In this document: positions 8,140-32,831 of the stretch, piece by piece | Position numbering within the stretch: position 1 is the first letter of the stretch | Layout: each line of letters begins with the position of its first letter | From: Moorena sp. SIO4E2 | GTDB lineage: Bacteria > Cyanobacteriota > Cyanobacteriia > Cyanobacteriales > Coleofasciculaceae | Assembly: GCF_010671945.1 (NCBI RefSeq) | Contig: NZ_JAAHIE010000031.1 | Coordinates: 1 to 33,033 of the forward strand | Length of the DNA: 33,033 bases | Reading direction: 5' to 3' | Translations under genes and position numbers: made by a program | Notes under the pieces: generated by a model | The model's database searches: none | What the model was told of the DNA's origin: nothing | The model's input: the letters and a program-made list of their open reading frames with translations, nothing else

Positions 8140-8215
8140 CGCTCGTTAGTTTTTAGTTGTTAGTTGGTAGTTAATAGTTGCTAGTTGGTAGTGATTAGTT
8201 GCTATTTACAACGTT
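8140..8215. repeat. STRR heptamer repeats (TAGTTGG/TAGTTGC/TAGTTAA) in the rplB-rpsS spacer
   Basis: Direct reading. Confidence 0.85.
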
Positions 8216-9107: not shown

Positions 9108-9109
9108 AA

Positions 9110-9230
9110 CAAGTATTTTTTACTTAGTTTGTCTTGACTAGTTTGTCTTGACTAGTTTGTCTTAACAATTGACAATCTACCAATTGGCAATTAACCAAAT
9201 TAATAATTAGCAATTAGCAATTAGCCAGTT
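9110..9230. repeat. Tandem 13-mer (TAGTTTGTCTTGAC x3) followed by STRR heptamers (CAATTGG/CAATTAG/CAATTAA) in the rplW-rplB spacer
   Basis: Direct reading. Confidence 0.85.
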
Positions 9231-11110: not shown

Positions 11111-11582
11111 TCTCGTTCAATTGCGTTGACTGGTCAGAAAAGGCTATTCAACTTGCCTGACTTCGCTGGGACTTAAGTTGTTAATAACTCAGTATCCCTT
11201 GATCCACGAAATTGTAAGCAATTATTGACCTAAAGCAGACCCAAGAACTGATGGGACTTGTTTATACCTAACTGTCTTTGATCTACTTTAGCCCTGATGC
11301 CAAACAAACGCCTGGTATGCTGTCTATATTGTCTTGCCTCGAACCTACTTCTCAGCCCACAGCACACCCAGATCATCAGTTGCTGAGGAAGCAACTGTCA
11401 TAATGTCACTATTATATAGTATATAGTATTTTGCTAAGGGTGTCTAGTTAGTTTGAGAATTAGTTTGAGAAAAATTTGCTTGCTGTATGGATTTATGTGA
11501 AATCGGGGGATTCGGAGCTCGAAGGATGCGTTCGCGTAGCGTAGCCCTTCGGGCTAATCGCATAGTCTTGAAACCAAATTAT

Positions 11583-14289: not shown

Positions 14290-14535
14290 TTAGTTAGAAG
14301 TTGGCGGACTAATCAGACCATTAGCTGCACCAAATAGATTGATGGGATTTTTGCCATCGGTAATCAAAACACTCTGGATACCAAGTGCTTCTAGAAGTCT
14401 TGCCTGCATTTCCGGACCTGCTTGTGCGATCGCTTGAATGGTTTGAGGACCAATTGCTTCTACTTTCTGTCGGTATTCTTCACTCTTAATGTGAGCCTCG
14501 CAGTCAAGTCCCGAAAAATTAGGACAAAACTGTAT
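14290..14535 (-). pseudogene. 3' fragment of a major vault protein (MVP) homolog: cap-helix end plus cap-ring. No start codon; separated from its 5' part by the tnpB element.
   Basis: Minus-strand translation reads ...[69 protein letters not shown]. Metazoan MVP has ...[50 protein letters not shown].... The frame is closed by a stop at 14536-14538. Confidence 0.8.
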
Positions 14536-14555
14536 TTAATAGTGCGAACTGGACA

Positions 14556-14584
14556 TTGACAATTTTATAGCGCTAGACTATAAT
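14556..14584 (+). promoter_or_regulatory. Consensus sigma-70-type promoter (TTGACA-17 nt-TATAAT) upstream of tnpB
   Basis: TTGACA at 14556-14561, a 17-nt spacer, TATAAT at 14579-14584. It lies about 30 nt upstream of the tnpB start. Confidence 0.6.
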
Positions 14585-14614
14585 GGCAGTATATAGCAAA
14601 AGCTGTACACACCG

Positions 14615-16102
14615 TTGATGATGCAAAAGAAAGTAGGCGCAGTAAAGAAGATATCGACTCAGGTCGTCCCAGTTGTAGGGATAGCTAAGTCGGTTGAGCT
14701 TGAGCTGTTGTCTACGATGAAAAAACTAGGCGTCGTCAGGTCTGAGTCTTACAACAAGCTGGGTAGTATAAGTCATTGGGGACTTGACTGGAAAAAAGCC
14801 TACCCAGAAGTCAGGGACTTCAGGAAGCCTGAGTCCCTGGGCTTGCCTTCCAAGTTAATGGAATGGACTGTCAGTGATGTAGCTAAAACTATCACAGCTC
14901 AACAAGCGGCTTCCATTGAGGCAGTCATAAAAAAGATCTATAAGAGGTTTCCTGGAAAGGAAAACCAGAAGATCAGAAAGGATATCTCTAAGCAACTCAA
15001 AACTTCAGCTTTTCTGGATAATCCACTATTGCACAGACTTGTAAGGAAAGAGTTTCAGAGAGGACATTCTTGGGTCAAGAATCAAGTTGTATACCAACAA
15101 GGAGGATACTCGTGTAAACGATTGTCTCGTTATACTTATCAATTGGAATTAGCTGGAATCAGAAGAGGAAAAAGAAACAAACTAATAGTTAGGTCTAATC
15201 GAAATATTAAAGGACAGATTAGACTAATATACAACTCTCTACTGGCAAGATTTGAGATTCATTTTTTGGTTAATCACGGGACAGCTGAGATTCCTCCTGA
15301 ACGTCGAGCGATAGGAGTAGACAAGGGATACACCGAGGCTTTTTATGATTCAGATGGTCAGGCACACGGGAAGAACCTGGGCAAAATAGCAACCATAAAA
15401 TCCGTTCGCGTAGCGTGGCCTTTTGGCCATCGAATATGCGCCAAAAATCGGAACAGAGGAAAACTCTGGGCAATACATAGGAAGCTAGAAAAAATAGATC
15501 CAGCTAAATCAGCTCGGATACTGAAAAATAATCTGAGTCGAAAAACAGAAAACAGTCGTTACAGAAGAGATCAATCAGAGTTGAGGGCGATTATAGGGGC
15601 TGCTTCTAAATCCCTCTTCAAAGGAGAATCTCTAAGAATTTTTGCTGAGGATTTAACGCAACCAATCAAAAATAAACGCCAGTCAAAGGCTATGTCTCGC
15701 AAGTTGAATAGCTGGATGAAAGGAGAAATGCGGTACTCCTTGCAGAAATGGGCTAATTGGACTGGTTCGGTTGTGACAGAAGTCCAGCCAAGCTACACGT
15801 CGCAAATTGACTCCTTTTCTGGCACCTTATTGGGAGCAAGGATTGGGGACAGTTTTATCAGATTTAATGGGGTCGTGTTGCAGGCTGATCACAATGCTGC
15901 GAAGAATATCCTTGCTCGTGGTACAGATCAAGGAATCTCCCGGTTTATGACTAGGGTTGAAGTGCAGGCAGTATTGTTGCGTCGTACTGCGCGTTTCTTA
16001 GAAGGTATGGATTTGACTTTAGCTGACGCGGTTAAGCTAGGATGGCTTGACCGCAAGCATGCCAAAACTCAAGCTTTTAAGGAACTCCTCACCGGGATGT
16101 GA
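14615..16102 (+). CDS. tnpB: IS200/IS605-family TnpB-like RuvC nuclease (OrfB). Divergent variant lacking the zinc-finger cysteines. First ATG at 14618.
   Basis: RuvC-I is GVDKGYTEAFYDSDG, RuvC-II is LRIFAEDL...SVVTEVQPSYTSQID, RuvC-III is LQADHNAAKNI. The four expected ZnF Cys positions read SFSG...RFNG instead. The N-terminal 230 aa have a WED/REC-like layout. Confidence 0.8.
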   Translation: MMMQKKVGAVKKISTQVVPVVGIAKSVELELLSTMKKLGVVRSESYNKLGSISHWGLDWKKAYPEVRDFRKPESLGLPSKLMEWTVSDVAKTITAQQAASIEAVIKKIYKRFPGKENQKIRKDISKQLKTSAFLDNPLLHRLVRKEFQRGHSWVKNQVVYQQGGYSCKRLSRYTYQLELAGIRRGKRNKLIVRSNRNIKGQIRLIYNSLLARFEIHFLVNHGTAEIPPERRAIGVDKGYTEAFYDSDGQAHGKNLGKIATIKSVRVAWPFGHRICAKNRNRGKLWAIHRKLEKIDPAKSARILKNNLSRKTENSRYRRDQSELRAIIGAASKSLFKGESLRIFAEDLTQPIKNKRQSKAMSRKLNSWMKGEMRYSLQKWANWTGSVVTEVQPSYTSQIDSFSGTLLGARIGDSFIRFNGVVLQADHNAAKNILARGTDQGISRFMTRVEVQAVLLRRTARFLEGMDLTLADAVKLGWLDRKHAKTQAFKELLTGM

Positions 16103-16223
16103 GGAACGTCTAGATAGATGAGCGGGAGGCTTGACTCCAATTGCTACTTGACCGCTCCTCACTCAGACATCAATAAAATGCACCTTGGCCGTTTTATTCG
16201 GTTTTATCCCGATTGATGACGGT

Positions 16224-16697
16224 TTAAGAGTATTCCTTAGCTCTTGCTTCTGCTGTTGCCTGACCTGTAGACTCAATGGCTATATTTTCTGCCTTTGACA
16301 CTCCCCGTCCTAGAAGAACGGGGAGTGTCAAATCCCCTACCAGTTTCTCGTTTGGATAAAGGGGAAACGGATCTTGCGCGAAACGAATTTCCAGATCACC
16401 GTAGCGCAGTCGAATTTGACCATGCTGATCAGCAATGGGTTGACCGTCTTCATCCCGGAGTAATGGATTAGCCACCACACAATAATATCGAGGCGGCACA
16501 ATAATCATCGGTTCAGGTTTTAAGATCAGCCGCTCGTGATCCCGAAGGGTAATGGTTTGAGGACCAACCTCCAGTCGCGTAACACCAGTATTGTTGTCTA
16601 GCACATGAATAAACTGTTGGGGCTTGATGCGAATCACTTCACTAGTTGTTCTAGGCACTTCCATTTTCTTCTCTGTTTTACGCTCAGTTGTAGTCAT
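16224..16697 (-). CDS. Major vault protein homolog, 5' portion: MVP repeats 1-2 plus a short shoulder/cap-helix-like tail. The gene is truncated/disrupted by the tnpB element.
   Basis: 157 aa. [29 protein letters not shown]...[14 protein letters not shown]...[37 protein letters not shown] compares with metazoan MVP [29 protein letters not shown]...VTVPPRHYCTVANP...[37 protein letters not shown]. The tail [17 protein letters not shown] resembles MVP AVESTGTAKAEAESRAE. Confidence 0.8.
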   Translation of the reverse strand: [157 protein letters not shown]

Positions 16698-18409: not shown

Positions 18410-18454
18410 GGTGCGACCCGTGGCGAATTTAATTCTTAATGGGTCAAGCGCACC
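18410..18454. repeat. Miniature palindromic dispersed repeat with GGTGCGAC...GCGCACC termini (family copy 1)
   Basis: GGTGCGACCCGTGGCGAATTTAATTCTTAATGGGTCAAGCGCACC. The same 32-nt core occurs inverted at 22471-22507. A related copy is at 32786-32831. Confidence 0.75.
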
Positions 18455-18561: not shown

Positions 18562-21462
18562 TCAATTGCGCAGAATCAACCGTTGCCGATGAACATGCAA
18601 CAAACGAAACTCCCGCTGCGCCACCTGCTCCAACATATAAATAATGTGCTCTGGTCGCAACATCGTGCCATCATTCAAACAACTCCCCACATACCGCAAA
18701 ACCACCCCAGACTCCGCAACCTCCTCTTCACCATCTTTGGATTTTTGGGGTTCGATCACCTCGAAGTCAAATAAGCGATCGCATAAATTCACCCACTGCT
18801 TCTTCCCCGACTTCGTAAACCGCTCCCACCAAATTTCCTTACTACCTTTGATTGCTTCAATCCAACCCTGCCACTCTTCCCAAGACGCTTCTGATATTAC
18901 CTCAACTCGAATCAAATACTCAGCTCTCTCCAACAGCTGAGTTCCCGCAGGTTCCTTCAAATCCACTGCTTCAACCCCATACACCGGAATCTCTTCAGGC
19001 AACTGAGACACCAGCCTTTCCCTAAACTCCTCAACTGGCATTTTCTCAGTTAACTCAAACTCCACAATCTCCCCACTGCTAGACGCTCCCAAGGGCAACG
19101 CATTAGCAATCATAATCCGAGCATTAGCCCGAAACCCCCCACTATATCGAATTGGCAGTGACGCCCGTCTTACTGCTCTCTCAAACAGACTTGCCAAATC
19201 CAGATGACCCAACAAGGTCATATCCCCCAACTTTCCAAACCAAACCCGCAGCCGCTGATCCTTATTAGTATTGGGTTTAAAGTGACCAGCAAATTGCGGA
19301 ATCTGTGGCGGGTCAATCACCACATTATGACCAAAATCAATCCCACACACACCACAGTGAGAACACCCATCAAAGGAACAATCCGGTACCGTTGCTGCAT
19401 CTAACGCCCGTTGTAAATCTTCCTTGAGCCAATTCTTATCAATTCCCGTATCAATATGATCCCAAGGCAAGGGAGCATCAAGGGCGTTAAGGGTTGACGG
19501 TTGAAGGTTAGCTGGTTGAAGGTTAGCTGGTTGAAGGTTAGAAGGTTGAAGGTTAGAAGGTTGAAGGTTAGAAGGTTGAAGGTTAGAAGGTTGAAGGTTA
19601 GTTGGTTGAAGGTTAGTTGGTTGAAGGTTAGCTGGTTGAAGGTTAGTTGGTTGTCGGTTAGTTGGTTGTCGGTTAGTTGGTTGTAGGTTAGCTGGTTGTA
19701 GGTTAGCTGGTTGCTCTGAACTTTCAACCTTGGCCTTTTGGCCACGCTTCGCGAACAACCTTCCAACTTGCAACTCTTCTACACCCGCCATCACGTTCCA
19801 TTCGCCATTTTCTACTTGGCGATATTTCCAGGTCAGACCTGATGAAGCGATCGCATTTTCCCAAGCAGCAAATGCCCGATCCAAGCTTTCCATCCAGGAG
19901 TCCATCCCTGCCCCCAATTCCCAAGCACGGCGCACCACCGCACTTAAGCGTCTGTCACCCCGTCCCACGAAATCTTCCATGGCCGAAATCCGAACATCGG
20001 TGTAATTAACCTTCACCCCCCTGATCTGACCAAATACTTGTTTGAGTAATTCCTGCTTGCGTTCAAACTCCGAAGTCGATACGGAATGCCACTGGAATGG
20101 GGTGTGAGGTTTTGGGGTAAAATTAGAAACAGTTATGTTAAACTTAATGGTTTTTCTGCCTTTAGCACGGCACTCCTGCTGCAACCAACGCACCGTTTCC
20201 GCAATCCCCAACACATCCATATCCGTTTCACCGGGCAAACCAATCATAAAATAGAGCTTGACTTTCTCCCAGCCTTGCTCAAATGCCGTCTTTACTCCCC
20301 TGAGCAGTTCTTCATTAGTCAGTCCCTTATTAACAATATCCCGCATCCGCTGAGTTCCTGCTTCTGGGGCAAAGGTCAAGCCACTCTGCCGATTGCCCCC
20401 TAGGATATTGGCAATATTCTCATCAAAGCGGTCTACCCGCTGACTCGGTAGGGACAAGGAAATATTCTGATCCTTAAGACGATTTTTGATTTCCATCCCC
20501 ACCGCTGGTAGAGCCAGGTAATCCGAACAACTCAGGGATAGAAGGGAAAACTCGTTATACCCTGTAGCACGCATCCCTTGTTCAATAGCTTCCACCACTT
20601 TTTCTGGTTCCACATCCCGCGCTGGTCGAGTCAGCATCCCAGGTTGGCAGAAGCGACAACCCCGAGTACAGCCCCGTCGCACTTCGATCTTGAGTCGGTC
20701 ATGAACCGTTTGGATATAGGGTACTAGTCCAATAGCATAGGCAGGCATCGGTGTAGCCACACGCCGCAAAATCCGCTTCGGCACATCAGGGCGGTTGGGT
20801 TTAACTGAGCCATCCTCAGTCATATCATAGAATTGGGGGACATACACCCCTGGTATCTGAGCCAAATCCAGGAGTAACGCTTCTCGACTTAAGCCAGCTG
20901 CTTTGCCTTCTTCGATTACTAAGCCAATCTCTGGCAACAATTCTTCCCCATCGCCAAGATCAACAAAATCTAAGAAATCAGCATAGGGTTCAGGATTCGA
21001 TGTCGCCGTTTGTCCACCTGCAAAAATTAGGGGTATTTCCGATATATCAAACTGAGCACGGTCTTTCCAGGTCAGGGGAATTCCTCCCAAATCCAACATT
21101 TCCAAGATGTTGGTTGCCCCTAATTCATAGCTAAGGCTAAAGCCAATAATATCAAAATCTTTCAGAGGTCGCCGATTCTCGACAGCAAACAGAGGGGTTT
21201 GAGTGGAACGTAATTTAGCTGCCAAGTCTGGGGCAGGTAGATAGGCGCGATCGCATAATTGCCTAGGTTGATAATTCAATATATTGTAGAGGATGATATG
21301 GCCTAAGTTAGAAGCCCCCACTTCATAGATTTCTGGATAAGTCAATACCCAGCGTACCTCAGCTTCTTCCCAAGGTTTATGGACTGCTCCCAACTCGTTA
21401 CCTAAGTAACGGGCTGGTCTGTTGATGTCTGGTGTTAATATTTCCTCTACAGTGATTGCCAT
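18562..21462 (-). CDS. B12-binding-type radical SAM protein (TIGR03960-like) fused to a DUF2344/TIGR03936-like C-terminal domain, with a 15-copy pentapeptide linker
   Basis: 966 aa. The N-terminus MAITVEEILTPDINRPARYLGNELGAVHKPWEEAEVRWVLTYPEIYEVGASNLGHIILYN is typical of this radical-SAM family, and CTRGCRFC is the SAM cluster motif. The C-terminal 270 aa (RLRVWFGKLGDMTLLGHLDL...) are the usually separate DUF2344 partner. Confidence 0.8.
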   Translation of the reverse strand: MAITVEEILTPDINRPARYLGNELGAVHKPWEEAEVRWVLTYPEIYEVGASNLGHIILYNILNYQPRQLCDRAYLPAPDLAAKLRSTQTPLFAVENRRPLKDFDIIGFSLSYELGATNILEMLDLGGIPLTWKDRAQFDISEIPLIFAGGQTATSNPEPYADFLDFVDLGDGEELLPEIGLVIEEGKAAGLSREALLLDLAQIPGVYVPQFYDMTEDGSVKPNRPDVPKRILRRVATPMPAYAIGLVPYIQTVHDRLKIEVRRGCTRGCRFCQPGMLTRPARDVEPEKVVEAIEQGMRATGYNEFSLLSLSCSDYLALPAVGMEIKNRLKDQNISLSLPSQRVDRFDENIANILGGNRQSGLTFAPEAGTQRMRDIVNKGLTNEELLRGVKTAFEQGWEKVKLYFMIGLPGETDMDVLGIAETVRWLQQECRAKGRKTIKFNITVSNFTPKPHTPFQWHSVSTSEFERKQELLKQVFGQIRGVKVNYTDVRISAMEDFVGRGDRRLSAVVRRAWELGAGMDSWMESLDRAFAAWENAIASSGLTWKYRQVENGEWNVMAGVEELQVGRLFAKRGQKAKVESSEQPANLQPANLQPTNRQPTNRQPTNLQPANLQPTNLQPTNLQPSNLQPSNLQPSNLQPSNLQPANLQPANLQPSTLNALDAPLPWDHIDTGIDKNWLKEDLQRALDAATVPDCSFDGCSHCGVCGIDFGHNVVIDPPQIPQFAGHFKPNTNKDQRLRVWFGKLGDMTLLGHLDLASLFERAVRRASLPIRYSGGFRANARIMIANALPLGASSSGEIVEFELTEKMPVEEFRERLVSQLPEEIPVYGVEAVDLKEPAGTQLLERAEYLIRVEVISEASWEEWQGWIEAIKGSKEIWWERFTKSGKKQWVNLCDRLFDFEVIEPQKSKDGEEEVAESGVVLRYVGSCLNDGTMLRPEHIIYMLEQVAQREFRLLHVHRQRLILRN
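19493..19712. repeat. 15-bp tandem repeat array, about 14.7 copies (GGTTGAAGGTTAGCT and variants), in-frame inside the radical-SAM gene
   Basis: Visible direct repeats. The coding frame reads QPANL QPANL QPTNR QPTNR QPTNL QPANL QPTNL QPTNL QPSNL x4 QPANL x2 QPSTL. The other two frames give the artifactual repeat ORFs 19401-19766 and 19501-19686. Confidence 0.9.
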
Positions 21463-22469: not shown

Positions 22470-22592
22470 TAGGTGCGCTTGACCCATTAAGAATTAAATT
22501 CGCACCTATTGGTGCGCGCCTCCAAGGGCGAATAAATCGCCCTTGGGTCGCACCTATTGGCTTTGCCAACGCTACGCGAACGGGTCGCACCT
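22470..22592. repeat. Nest of three or four small palindromic dispersed repeats. All carry AGGTGCG(C/A)...GTCGCACCT-type termini.
   Basis: AGGTGCGCTTGACCCATTAAGAATTAAATTCGCACCT, then GGTGCGCGCCTCCAAGGGCGAATAAATCGCCCTTGGGTCGCACCT, then GCTTTGCCAACGCTACGCGAACGGGTCGCACCT. Confidence 0.75.
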
Positions 22593-22817
22593 AAACTTCA
22601 ATACCTCTAACCCTTGAAACGGCATAGCTTCTTCCGTTCAGGTTAAGCTTTCTGAGTTAAGTCCAAAAGGCATATAATATATATGTAATATATATGTCAG
22701 AGAGTACCAATCCACCTCATCAGTGATTTAGATCACATACCAATAAGATAAAGATCACTATAGTGGCTAGTAATTTCAGAAGACAATAAAGTTATATGGA
22801 ATTGTGGGTAAGTAATT

Positions 22818-27329: not shown

Positions 27330-28676
27330 CTAGTTTTTTGACACTCCCCGGTCGCGCATACGCGGGGATTCTTCATTCAACGAGCCAGCTTGCTGAACCT
27401 GGCCGGAACCAAGAACAGTAGAGGCCGATTCTCCTGAAGCGTTTAGATCTTTTAAGATCCAGGTTCCGGTGTGCCCCACCGTACCCAAGGCTTTCTTAAG
27501 GATGTTTATTGCGGCGTTGTGGTCTCTATCTAACTGACAACCACACTTGCACGTATGAGTCCTAGTTGATAGGGACTTTTTAACTTCTTCGCCACAATTG
27601 GAACAGTTTTGGCTGGTATATGCAGGATTTACTGCAACTGTTACCTTTCCGAACTTGGTGCCAAAGTGCTCCATCCATTTCCTAAACTGATACCAACCTG
27701 CATCATTAATAGACTTAGCGAGGCAGTGATTTTTTACTAGGTTCTTGGCTCTTAAGTCGACCTAGGCGACCAGATCGTTAGAACAGATTACGCAGCGCGC
27801 CGGAGACGAAACCTTAGAATAAAGAAGCCTTAATAACAAAGATTTAACCCTTTTATGCATAGCCGACTAACCATAAAGGCTTCTTTATTCTAACGGTAAC
27901 TTCGTTCCCAGTCTCTTGGCGTTCTCTTCACGTTGCCTACTTATCTTAAGGTGCTGTCTGCCTAGTCTATTAACTGCTTTATTTCGATTGGATGAGCCTT
28001 TCTTCTTGCGAGAAACTCGACGCTGGTAGAACTTAAGGCGTTTTTCTACCGTTCTGTAAAAGCAGGGATTTGGTTCAGTTTTTCCAGCGGAATCAGTGTA
28101 AAAATATTTTAGTCCAACATCCAAGCCGATAGCTGTCCCACTTGGCTCTAGTTCCTCTTTGATATCAACTGAAACACAAAACTGGACATAATAACCATCA
28201 GCCCGGCGAACTATACGGACTCGCTTTATTTCCTTTTTATCCAAGCGCCACAAGTCCCATGTACCTTTAAGCTTAAGCTTCCCAATACCCTTTTTATCAC
28301 TAAAGGTGATTGACTTCTTGTCAGGGGATAACTTCCATCCAGACTGTTTATACTCCACTGAGCGGCAGTTTTTCTGGAACTTAGGAAAACCTTTCTTTCC
28401 AGGTACTTTTTTCTTGCAGTTATCAAAGAATCGAACAATTGATGACCATGCTCTTTCAGCACTAGACTGACGAGCAGTAGAGTTTAATTCATTAGCAAAA
28501 GGAAAGTTTTTAGCAAGGACTGCACTGTACTTATTAAGGTCAAATTTGTTGACCCCTTTATTTTCCATCCAATACCTGAGGCAGCTATTACGGATGAACT
28601 GGACTGTCCGGATAGCCTCGTTGATCCCAGAGTATTGATGTTTTTTTCCTTTCGCCTTGAACTCTAAAATGATCAT
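27330..28676 (-). pseudogene. tnpB: Degraded classical IS200/IS605-family tnpB (OrfB). N-terminal and C-terminal parts are separated by a palindromic insertion, an in-frame TAG and a frameshift; the RuvC-II region is partly missing.
   Basis: The N-part (real start MIILEFKAKGKKHQYSGINEAIRTVQFIRNSCLRYW...AIGLDVGLKYFYTDSAG...RRVSRKKKGSSNRNKAVNRLGRQH) is the typical TnpB WED/REC/RuvC-I region. The C-part reads VDLRAKNLVKNHCLAKSINDAGWYQFRKWMEHFGTKFGKVTVAVNPAYTSQNCSNCG...CKCGCQLDRDHNAAINI (ZnF plus RuvC-III) and can only be read across one stop and one frameshift. Confidence 0.75.
27803..27912. mobile_element. PATE-like palindromic element (copy A) inserted inside the degraded tnpB
   Basis: Long imperfect palindrome: CCTTAGAATAAAGAAGCC-TTAATAACAAAGATTTAACCCTTTTATGCATAGCCGACTAACCATAAA-GGCTTCTTTATTCTAACGG. 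It interrupts the TnpB reading frame. Confidence 0.55.
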
Positions 28677-28689
28677 CAGCTTCTTAAAG

Positions 28690-28790
28690 TTACCGTAAGA
28701 ATAGGGTCGCCTTATAACAACAGTTTTAACCCTTTTTCCATAGCCGACAAACCATAAAGGCGACCCTATTCTAAGGTTTCGTCTGGGACC
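28690..28790. mobile_element. PATE-like palindromic element (copy B), or the IS left-end hairpin, immediately upstream of the degraded tnpB start
   Basis: Same loop sequence as copy A (TTATAACAACAGTTTTAACCCTTTTTCCATAGCCGACAAACCATAAA). It differs in the stem, which is fully compensated: GGGTCGCC/GGCGACCC here versus AAGAAGCC/GGCTTCTT in copy A. Confidence 0.55.
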
Positions 28791-28946
28791 TAAACTGTTC
28801 ACTCCCTTATTTTACAACATCCAGACTAAAATTCCGGATTTTCCTGAAATATTTTTCTAGGCGCGTCAAGCCGCTGTGAGCCTTCATCCCCGGTCATTAG
28901 ACACGGGGTTTTCGGCTTTGGGGGATTTTTATAAAAGGACAGAGAT

Positions 28947-31004: not shown

Positions 31005-31347
31005 CAGTTCTGATAACCCGGGTAGCGTTTACCAAATCCACCTCCCCCCAGTCTATCCTGTGTTGTTGAGATACCCAACTCGGCAGACGGGGTCAAGTCT
31101 AAAGTCTGAAGTCTGAAGTCTGAAGTTGTCAGTGGTCAGTGTAACTCCTGGTTGGGTCGCAAGTTTTTAGTTAACCATGTCTTGATGCAGAGCGCGAGTG
31201 GGGGAATTCCCCGTGAGGCCACTGCATCGCGCGCCTCAGCCATCGATCACCCCATTTCATCCTTCATCCTTCATCCTTCATCCTTCTTATTTGATATTTC
31301 ATTCTTCACACGGGAAATATCCCAGAGGAAGACCGTGATTGTTCACC

Positions 31348-31563: not shown

Positions 31564-31735
31564 GATTGGTTGTGATTGGTGATTGGTTATTTAGGTTACT
31601 GGTTACTGATTATAGTCATTTGTTCTTTGGTAAGTATTCAGCTATCAGCTATCAGCTATCAGCTATCAGTTATCAGTTATCAGCTTATGGGCTATCAGTT
31701 ATCAGCTTATGAGCTATTAGCACGCTACTTAAGCT
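31560..31735. repeat. STRR heptamer arrays (GATTGGT, CAGCTAT x4, CAGTTAT) in the rpmG-rpsR spacer
   Basis: Direct reading. Spurious ORF 31576-31767 is generated by the repeats. Confidence 0.85.
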
Positions 31736-32016
31736 GCTTAGGTTTCTTTTATTCTGACGGCACCTGAAGTAGAGTGAGCCATTCGCGTAGCGTGACTCAA
31801 AGGCCAATGTTCACGGCTGACCACTGAATGCTTACAATAAAACAGGTAAGCATTGGTTTAAGCTGAGTTACTTGAGCTGACCGCTGATAGCTGACCGCTG
31901 AACGCGCACGCGTGTGCGTAGCACATAAGCTGAATACTTGTTCTTTGTTGCTTGTTCTTTGTCAATAGTCCATTTTCAATTAACAAATTCAATTCACAAA
32001 TGACCAAGGACCAAAT

Positions 32017-32785: not shown

Positions 32786-32831
32786 AGGTGCGACCCGTGG
32801 CGAATTTAATTCGCCAACGGAAAGCGCACCT
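32786..32831. repeat. Miniature palindromic dispersed repeat (family copy 3)
   Basis: AGGTGCGACCCGTGGCGAATTTAATTCGCCAACGGAAAGCGCACCT. Shares its first 26 nt with the copy at 18410. Confidence 0.75.

Follow-up and report, generated by a model that had tools for sequence, protein, structure and literature searches.

The window analyzed here, a stretch of 33,033 nucleotides from Moorena sp. SIO4E2, order Coleofasciculales (contig NZ_JAAHIE010000031.1), carries five copies of a short structured repeat, which are very probably tiny non-coding, non-autonomous insertion elements of the small dispersed repeat (SDR) type, most similar to SDR5. One unit consists of TT followed by two mini-hairpins, CGC-GNA-GCG and T-stem-loop-stem, amounting to 21–26 nt, and only the first of these hairpins has a fixed sequence. 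Precise gains or losses of 24 nt were detected at G|A, in either orientation, and the units are distributed in genes, spacers, and other repeats; where they are in frame in genes, the copies persist in protein linkers that tolerate them, and units have been amplified together with tandem repeats. The family is not confined to Nostocaceae.

The window represents an entire contig and is almost identical to contig JAAHFZ010000014.1 of Moorena sp. SIO1G6. In its five copies (Table 1), the core (G)TTCGCG(T/A)AGCGT is followed by a small hairpin. Exact matches with GTTCGCGTAGCGT are located at 11530(+), 15404(+), and 22569–22581(−), and matches with one mismatch at 31781(+) and 19744–19756(−). Chance matches with up to two mismatches averaged 0.20, and none of 100 dinucleotide-preserving shuffles of the window reached five. 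A covariance model of the element retrieved precisely these five copies from the window, with E-values ranging from 3e-10 to 9e-4, the best score (38.8 bits) being that of copy 4; a divergent sequence sharing the MITE with copy 5 matches the model weakly (14.4 bits, E 0.009) and may be a sixth relative. An earlier sequence-only reading of the window had described four copies of a 13-nt core with an adjacent hairpin that changes in sequence and keeps its pairing. This observation is confirmed: all four copies are present, the sequences quoted are correct (the copy given as 31779 begins one base later), and the contexts are as described, namely the Na/H-exchanger-rplC interval in the case of copy 1, a TnpB-like ORF in that of copy 2, a group of repeats in that of copy 4, and the rpmG-rpsR spacer in that of copy 5. 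The copy in tnpB is indeed in frame and encodes KSVRVAWPFG. The copy inside the radical-SAM gene had been overlooked, and the pairing is kept only in copies 1–4, the stems of which are perfect (T-AGCCC/GGGCT-A, T-GGCC/GGCC-A in two copies, and T-TGGC/GCCA-A), the stem of the 31779 copy being decayed and unpaired.

Table 1. Repeat copies and associated features of the window (positions in the 33,033-nt stretch).
Feature	Positions	Strand	Description
Copy 1	11531–11556	+	26 nt, TTCGCGTAGCG-T-AGCCC-TTC-GGGCT-A
Copy 2	15405–15428	+	Exact 24-nt insert TTCGCGTAGCGTGGCCTTTTGGCC in TnpB-like ORF 14615–16102
Copy 3	19732–19755	−	Exact 24-nt insert TTCGCGAAGCGTGGCCAAAAGGCC in TIGR03960 radical-SAM gene 18562–21462
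Copy 4	22557–22580	−	TTCGCGTAGCG-T-TGGC-AAA-GCCA-A, intergenic
Copy 5	31782–31806	+	Core intact, preceding base A not G; second hairpin decayed; rpmG-rpsR spacer
Possible sixth, divergent relative	31903–31927	+	CGC-GCAC-GCG then TGTGC-GTA-GCACA
15-nt tandem array	19444–19728	−	Encodes (QPxNL)n; adjoins copy 3
MITE	31630–31937		~308 nt, carries copy 5; boundaries approximate

Copy 1 lies about 25 nt downstream of the stop codon of the Na/H exchanger (TrkA) and upstream of rplC, antisense to both genes, inside a perfect octamer (GCG 11528–11530, ATCGC 11557–11561) of the highly iterated palindrome of cyanobacteria, HIP1 (GCGATCGC). A public gene call at 11342–11563 (L121 5222–5443) is a 73-codon ORF spanning this copy and is probably spurious. 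Copy 3 lies in the linker joining the radical-SAM and DUF2344 domains, where it encodes FAKRGQKA. Copy 4 has AATAGGTGCGACC repeat units on both sides and the immediate flanks CCCG|AT; these units (22500–22600) are related to another dispersed repeat, GGTGCGACCCGTGGCGAATTTAATTC, two identical copies of which are located at 18410–18435 and 32787–32812. In the ribosomal-protein operon, many spacers are full of heptamer tandem repeats (TCAGCTA, TTCATCC, TAGTTGT, and others; 31638–31708, 31256–31303, 8147–8202, 9109–9225). A full 879-residue homolog of the major vault protein, the gene of which is unusual in itself in a cyanobacterium, is encoded upstream of the Na/H exchanger in other Moorena strains (L123, L124, and L126, 1–1995); since the window (14498–16234, 16224–16697) carries only a 157-residue Vault_2 fragment adjoining the TnpB insertion sequence, the vault gene appears to have been disrupted or rearranged. 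A second TnpB gene (27330–28802; OrfB_IS605 and TNB domains) is split into two ORFs and shows 61-nt direct repeats at 27833–27893 and 28714–28774.

One genome per species was scanned with CGTTCGCGTAGCGT, which yielded at least 120 loci. About three quarters of the loci listed belong to filamentous cyanobacteria, and the remainder are scattered single matches in other phyla, which served as a natural control. Among the matches listed, the core with its hairpin was identified in Nostoc, Calothrix, Nodularia, Anabaena, Tolypothrix, Moorena, Okeania, Chamaesiphon, Leptolyngbyaceae, Phormidium, Microcoleus, Egbenema, Spirulina, and Pleurocapsa. A perfect hairpin directly follows the exact 14-mer in 83 of the 101 cyanobacterial occurrences among these matches versus 1 of the 30 non-cyanobacterial ones, and 48 different stem-loops were found after the 14-mer in the cyanobacterial occurrences listed. 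Extra copies (up to two mismatches, with a hairpin) amounted to 26 in the listed cyanobacterial loci and to none in the control loci. Beyond the window, the core does not occur at chance frequency and, among the matches listed, it is strongly enriched in filamentous cyanobacteria. In 109 kb of Moorena DNA, which was partly selected for the core, 36 copies were counted, including five tandem copies of one insert. A full-text literature search for the core sequence returned only an unrelated primer.

Various arrangements of the units were encountered in the loci examined. In a Tolypothrix locus (L007 1127–1260), six tandem repeats of the core with the left half-stem (17 nt) precede a GGAGAA array. 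In Moorena SIO3H5 (L122 318–440), three units organized as GCGATCGC-GTAGCGT-hairpin-ATCGC show a 46–47-nt spacing, with an intact HIP1 at each left junction. In loci of Calothrix, Scytonematopsis, and Pleurocapsa (L067, L046, L016, and L103), some units precisely occupy the loop of a longer, perfect 7–13-bp palindrome, as if they had been inserted into another hairpin element or a terminator. The idea that the element always lies in the loop of a larger palindrome was rejected, since, despite the striking cases of L067 and L046, this arrangement amounts to only 5% versus 1.2% in the controls.

DNA folding of copies 1–4 gave two adjacent hairpins, CGC-GTA-GCG and then the variable one. The 13-nt core is conserved, as had been claimed, and is itself a CGC-GNA-GCG mini-hairpin rather than an unstructured sequence. 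In 94 copies, no core position varies more than the middle N of its loop (T69 C13 A8 G4), and G6 and A8 are near-invariant; at the outer stem pair, positions 3–11, 73 copies have CG and 7, which read TTGGCGNAGCC, have GC. The conserved core contains exactly GCGNAGC, all four N being observed. This heptamer is the "mini-hairpin DNA" motif, which has a Tm of 70–76 C and is formed by GNA loops only (PMC13037366), and GNA loops rely on closure by a C-G pair (PMC3201870). The loop of the second hairpin is closed by C-G in 107 of 117 non-redundant copies, and triloops dominate (GNA in 64 of 95). A T...A closing pair, formed by the final T of the core and an A beyond the stem, is present in 82 of 105 copies.

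The sequence-only reading had attributed the changes in the hairpin to compensation rather than neutral decay, and the covariation analysis bears this out. In 41 copies having one geometry, all five stem pairs change on both sides, and the covariation score is 0.757 versus 0.137 in shuffles and 0.065–0.133 with slid partner columns; the hairpin covaries across more than 100 copies. As the 41 copies were preselected for the hairpin, the percentage paired in the covariation table is circular, and the comparison with the control loci (83/101 vs 1/30) is the unbiased figure. The element strand shows GNA loops and the complement would show TNC loops, which points to one strand folding as single-stranded DNA; very few G-T or A-C stem mismatches, which can indicate the folding strand, were present among the copies. 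The loops of Nostoc-type copies are almost all GNA. In copies with a palindromic GGCC stem, both loop orientations with respect to the core are found (TTTT/AAAA, GTA/TAC, GAAA/TTTC), as if the loop could be flipped (window 15417–15428 vs 19732–19743; L044, L054, and L129).

Empty and filled versions of the same site were found in the case of copies 2 and 3. Among the cluster representatives of the TnpB family, which is multicopy in Moorena, 109 of 120 read KKS-DRIC and 11 read KKS-VRVAWPFG-HRIC: the insert of copy 2, which separates TCCG from ATCGA, contributes the residues VRVAWPFG and turns D into H. The empty site, in the DNA of a paralog (L122), is AAGTCCG|ATCGAATATG, and the filled site of the window is AAATCCG[TTCGCGTAGCGTGGCCTTTTGGCC]ATCGAATATG, which gives a 24-nt insert with a single possible parse and without duplication. 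In the radical-SAM gene, site A is filled in the window and in L128 (AGGTTG[TTCGCGAAGCGTGGCCAAAAGGCC]AAGGTT) and empty in three Moorena strains (AGGTTG|AAGGTT, with AAT in one), the sequences being AGGTTGAAGGTT in M. producens JHB (L127) and L129, and AGGTTGAATGTT in L130. Further 24-nt inserts are present elsewhere in the radical-SAM linker of L128, L129, and L130, in the opposite orientation and in differing sequence variants. In L128 (Moorena SIO4A1), a reversed 24-nt unit inside the 15-nt repeat has been amplified five times as a 39-nt tandem unit, and this array, located in the radical-SAM gene at about L128 2100–2290, encodes QPS(N/T)LGQKATLRE; in L129, the reversed unit has a different loop, and in L130, the unit lies in the last repeat unit, in a different reading frame. 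On the element's strand, all the radical-SAM inserts are at GTTG|AAGG, a recurrent target which is contained in the unit of the 15-nt array when read on the other strand. The length of the (QPxNL)n array varies among Moorena strains (L127–L130) from 51 to 106 residues between conserved anchors, and the array is absent or different in other genera.

The MITE carrying copy 5 has the ends GTATTCAGC and GCTGAATAC and the duplicated flank CAAAGAACAA; JHB (L137) has it in the rpmG-rpsR spacer, but the same spacer lacks it in M. bouillonii PNG (L139) and Moorena SIOASIH (L133). No empty site was found for copy 1, an identical copy being present at the orthologous site of the other Moorena examined (L123, L125, and L126); since copy 1 is fixed in all the Moorena strains examined, not all copies are recent. 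For copy 4, a look-up by way of the STAS protein returned no record showing an empty site. Every insert lies between G and A, none of them shows a target duplication, and the filled and empty patterns fit insertion, precise excision, and transfer by recombination between strains alike. A duplication of ATCGC at the target was ruled out, since the TnpB and radical-SAM junctions permit one parse only. The encoded peptides all differ (VRVAWPFG, FAKRGQKA, and GQKATLRE/WPKGHATR) and the orientations relative to the genes are mixed, which counts against a peptide or RNA role. The sequence-only reading is partly supported as regards interpretation: the structure is selected, as it had proposed, and the insertion nature revealed by the empty sites of copies 2 and 3 had not been recognized. 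Since the copies are insertions, copy 5 being carried inside a MITE, the structure would be selected for the element's own propagation rather than for a function at each locus.

Two recurrent kinds of target were distinguished, HIP1-like (G/C)CG|ATCG(C/A) and the tandem-repeat target GTTG|AAGG, and the only feature common to all the targets is G|A. Copy 1, in ATGCG[26 nt]ATCGCAT, interrupts a perfect HIP1 octamer behind the third base, and the arrangement GCG|ATCGC is also found in about 10 other Moorena copies; copy 2 is located in the HIP1-like CCG|ATCGA, the empty site of which was seen, and copies 3–5 are at other sites. Altogether, HIP1 is the target of about one third of the Moorena copies. 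At the left junction with HIP1, a HIP1-like octamer is recreated, GCGTTCGC, or GCGATCGC in some copies. An integron attC-like crossover at G|TT was considered and rejected by inspection, since the core TTCGCG is unlike TTRRRY and the right junction differs. The TnpB insertion sequence was likewise rejected as the parent of the repeat: its ends, mapped by comparison with a strain without it, show no similarity.

Regarding the mechanism, we favor, with somewhat less than even confidence and within the broader SDR-type assignment, the idea that the element may be recognized on one strand, as a folded single-stranded DNA twin mini-hairpin, by a trans-acting, chromosomally encoded candidate enzyme conserved across filamentous cyanobacteria. 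This putative enzyme would nick and join the DNA both at G|T and at the hairpin's 3' foot, in a way resembling the HUH (Y1) handling of IS200/IS605 ends and REPs, and the copies with intact hairpins would go on propagating, which would give rise to the compensatory pattern. Single-stranded DNA recognition is suggested by the C-G-closed GNA triloops, which are the signature of DNA mini-hairpins, and by the presence of two GNA mini-hairpins on one strand. The A of the target closes the T-A pair of the second hairpin. Two results count against this explanation: the TnpB element hosting copy 2 is without SDR-like ends, and a regex motif search for ORFs with HUH and Y motifs around the copies, covering about 0.7 Mb of cyanobacterial sequence, found none. 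More tentatively, the SDR-type units may be the smallest known site-specific mobile DNA, a candidate enzyme conserved across filamentous cyanobacteria moving a 24-nt pair of single-stranded DNA mini-hairpins into G|A sites by cut-and-paste or by copying; we regard this as possible rather than probable. If it were true, the preference of the enzyme for GCG|ATCGC would be the first mechanistic partner for HIP1.

The main rival to an enzyme mechanism is spread without any dedicated enzyme, which we consider unlikely: replication template switching or short-patch gene conversion would copy the units between sites with matching short flanks, either HIP1 halves or the AAGGTTG units of tandem repeats, and the stable mini-hairpins would stall the fork and promote the switch. 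The fact that the two classes of targets share only G|A is odd for a sequence-specific enzyme and also fits templated copying between the same short flanks. The recipient sites do share their immediate flanks within each sub-type, GCG...ATCGC in about 10 Moorena copies and GTTG...AAGGTT at four radical-SAM sites and at the unrelated locus L120; likewise, there is no target duplication, the unit of L128 has been co-amplified with the 15-nt repeat into the 39-nt tandem array, and the occurrence of GGCC-stem loops in both orientations, TTTT/AAAA and GTA/TAC, resembles intrastrand switching. At the TnpB site, however, the flank identity is only 2–5 nt (CG and ATCG), and template switching leaves unexplained why a 12-nt core is identical across cyanobacterial orders while the second stem drifts, and it does not account for the invariable junctions, G|TT and stem|A.

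The repeat might also be a strict REP element, that is, the cognate repeat of a host RAYT/TnpA_REP gene, although this seems improbable to us. The resemblance with the REP/REPIN and RAYT (TnpA_REP) systems lies in the short, dispersed, non-autonomous hairpins, the numerous copies, the GTAG within a motif 5' of the hairpin, and the presumed handling of single-stranded DNA by a single-copy enzyme resident in the host, and subclasses of cyanobacterial TnpA_REP have REPs with a 5' GT[AG]G (PMC6006769). REPs are nonetheless extragenic and longer (a palindrome of about 20–40 nt), are often paired as REPINs, and flank RAYT, none of which was seen in the loci sampled here. Copies 2 and 3 lie inside coding sequences; instead of a free 5' GT[AG]G tetranucleotide next to a long imperfect palindrome, GTAG belongs to the first mini-hairpin, as its loop and 3' arm, and the stems measure 4–6 bp; REPIN-like inverted doublets are absent as a rule, and the regex search showed no Y1 gene near any sampled copy. 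Least probable of all, and very unlikely, is a functional RNA or transcribed regulatory motif (a protein-binding stem-loop, a processing site, or a terminator) selected at each locus. In its favor, the structure is kept through compensatory changes, and copy 1, which is situated just past a stop codon and upstream of the rplC operon, is shared by the other strains examined. Against it, no Rfam family matched the whole window at the gathering score and only a chance-level match was obtained near copy 1 at an E-value threshold; copy 1 has no terminator-like site and no T run; some genes carry the copies in sense and others in antisense, and one gene holds them in both orientations; the presence of copies varies by strain at one site, coding sequence included; and C(GNA)G triloops are typical of DNA hairpins and not of RNA (PMC3201870).

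If the copies are SDR-type insertion elements, as we think very probable, what is new is their presence in a lineage reported to be without such repeats, the SDR kind itself having been described in 2008. The natural experiments reported here provide an exact 24-nt unit, its junctions G|TT...stem|A, and two recurrent targets, along with repeated independent insertions in one protein linker among close Moorena strains. In PMC4390886, PMC5861425, and a preprint (bioRxiv 10.64898/2026.06.24.733823), the function of SDRs is still called unknown, and no mobilizing activity is known for them. With the unit, the junctions, the targets, and the structural reading in hand, the question as to what moves SDRs, and why at HIP1, becomes testable. 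In terms of genome annotation, the units give rise to spurious small ORFs and to in-frame insertions of 8 residues.

Several known systems can be compared with this repeat. The mini-hairpin d(GCGNAGC) (Hirao and co-workers, PMC13037366) is the same heptamer as that in the core, and the second loop is mostly C(GNA)G; d(GCGNAGC) is, however, a motif of physical chemistry that has also been reported at sites of single-strand priming, rather than a repeat family or a mobile element. HIP1 spreads by substitution, without indels, whereas the present element is an insertion. IS200/IS605 elements and their miniature derivatives also have a specific short adjacent target, no target duplication, and DNA hairpins rather than inverted terminal repeats, but they carry two different subterminal hairpins, are at least 100 nt long, and encode or borrow TnpA. 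The unit has neither the terminal inverted repeats nor the target-site duplication of classical MITEs.

The closest resemblance is that with the SDRs, which are presented by Elhai et al. (2008, Genome Res 18:1484) as small dispersed repeats of Nostocaceae. The hallmark of SDR5, as cited from that study in Elhai (2015; PMC4390886), is precise insertion between nucleotides 3 and 4 of HIP1, and SDR5 is a 21-nt sequence of unknown function (2026 preprint, bioRxiv 10.64898/2026.06.24.733823). The copies were classified as SDR5-type because of the split HIP1 and the 21-nt Nostoc units, the match with SDR5 being based on published descriptions and not on a consensus sequence: in two Nostoc loci, a 21-nt unit, TTGGCGTAGCCCGTCGTAGAC, having the same twin-hairpin architecture was found inside HIP1. 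SDR hairpins reportedly vary in sequence with their pairing kept, and SDRs are said to be embedded in tandem heptamer-type repeats and MITEs. The hairpins of the present family vary and keep their pairing in the same way, and the units are likewise nested, copy 3 and the L128–L130 inserts being in or beside the 15-nt array, copy 5 in a MITE, and the L083 and L089 copies in heptamer arrays. As in SDRs, the units are non-coding and dispersed, with a size in the range of about 21–27 nt (24 nt in the inserts and 26 nt in the HIP1 unit), and they show presence and absence at orthologous or paralogous sites without target duplication; the HIP1 position is that of SDR5 in part of the family only, namely copy 1 and about 10 other Moorena copies, along with copy 2 at its HIP1-like site. 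In the summary given by Xu et al. (2018; PMC5861425), SDRs had been found in Nostocaceae only, and this restriction does not hold here, the hosts being Moorena and other non-Nostocaceae genera; it is a distributional and not a structural criterion. The repeat therefore resembles SDR5 in its size of 21–27 nt, the insertion point in HIP1, the compensatory hairpin, and the nesting in tandem repeats and a MITE, and differs from it in the Moorena host, the 24–26-nt units with a GGCC-type stem and 3–4-nt loops, and the second recurrent target, GTTG|AAGG.
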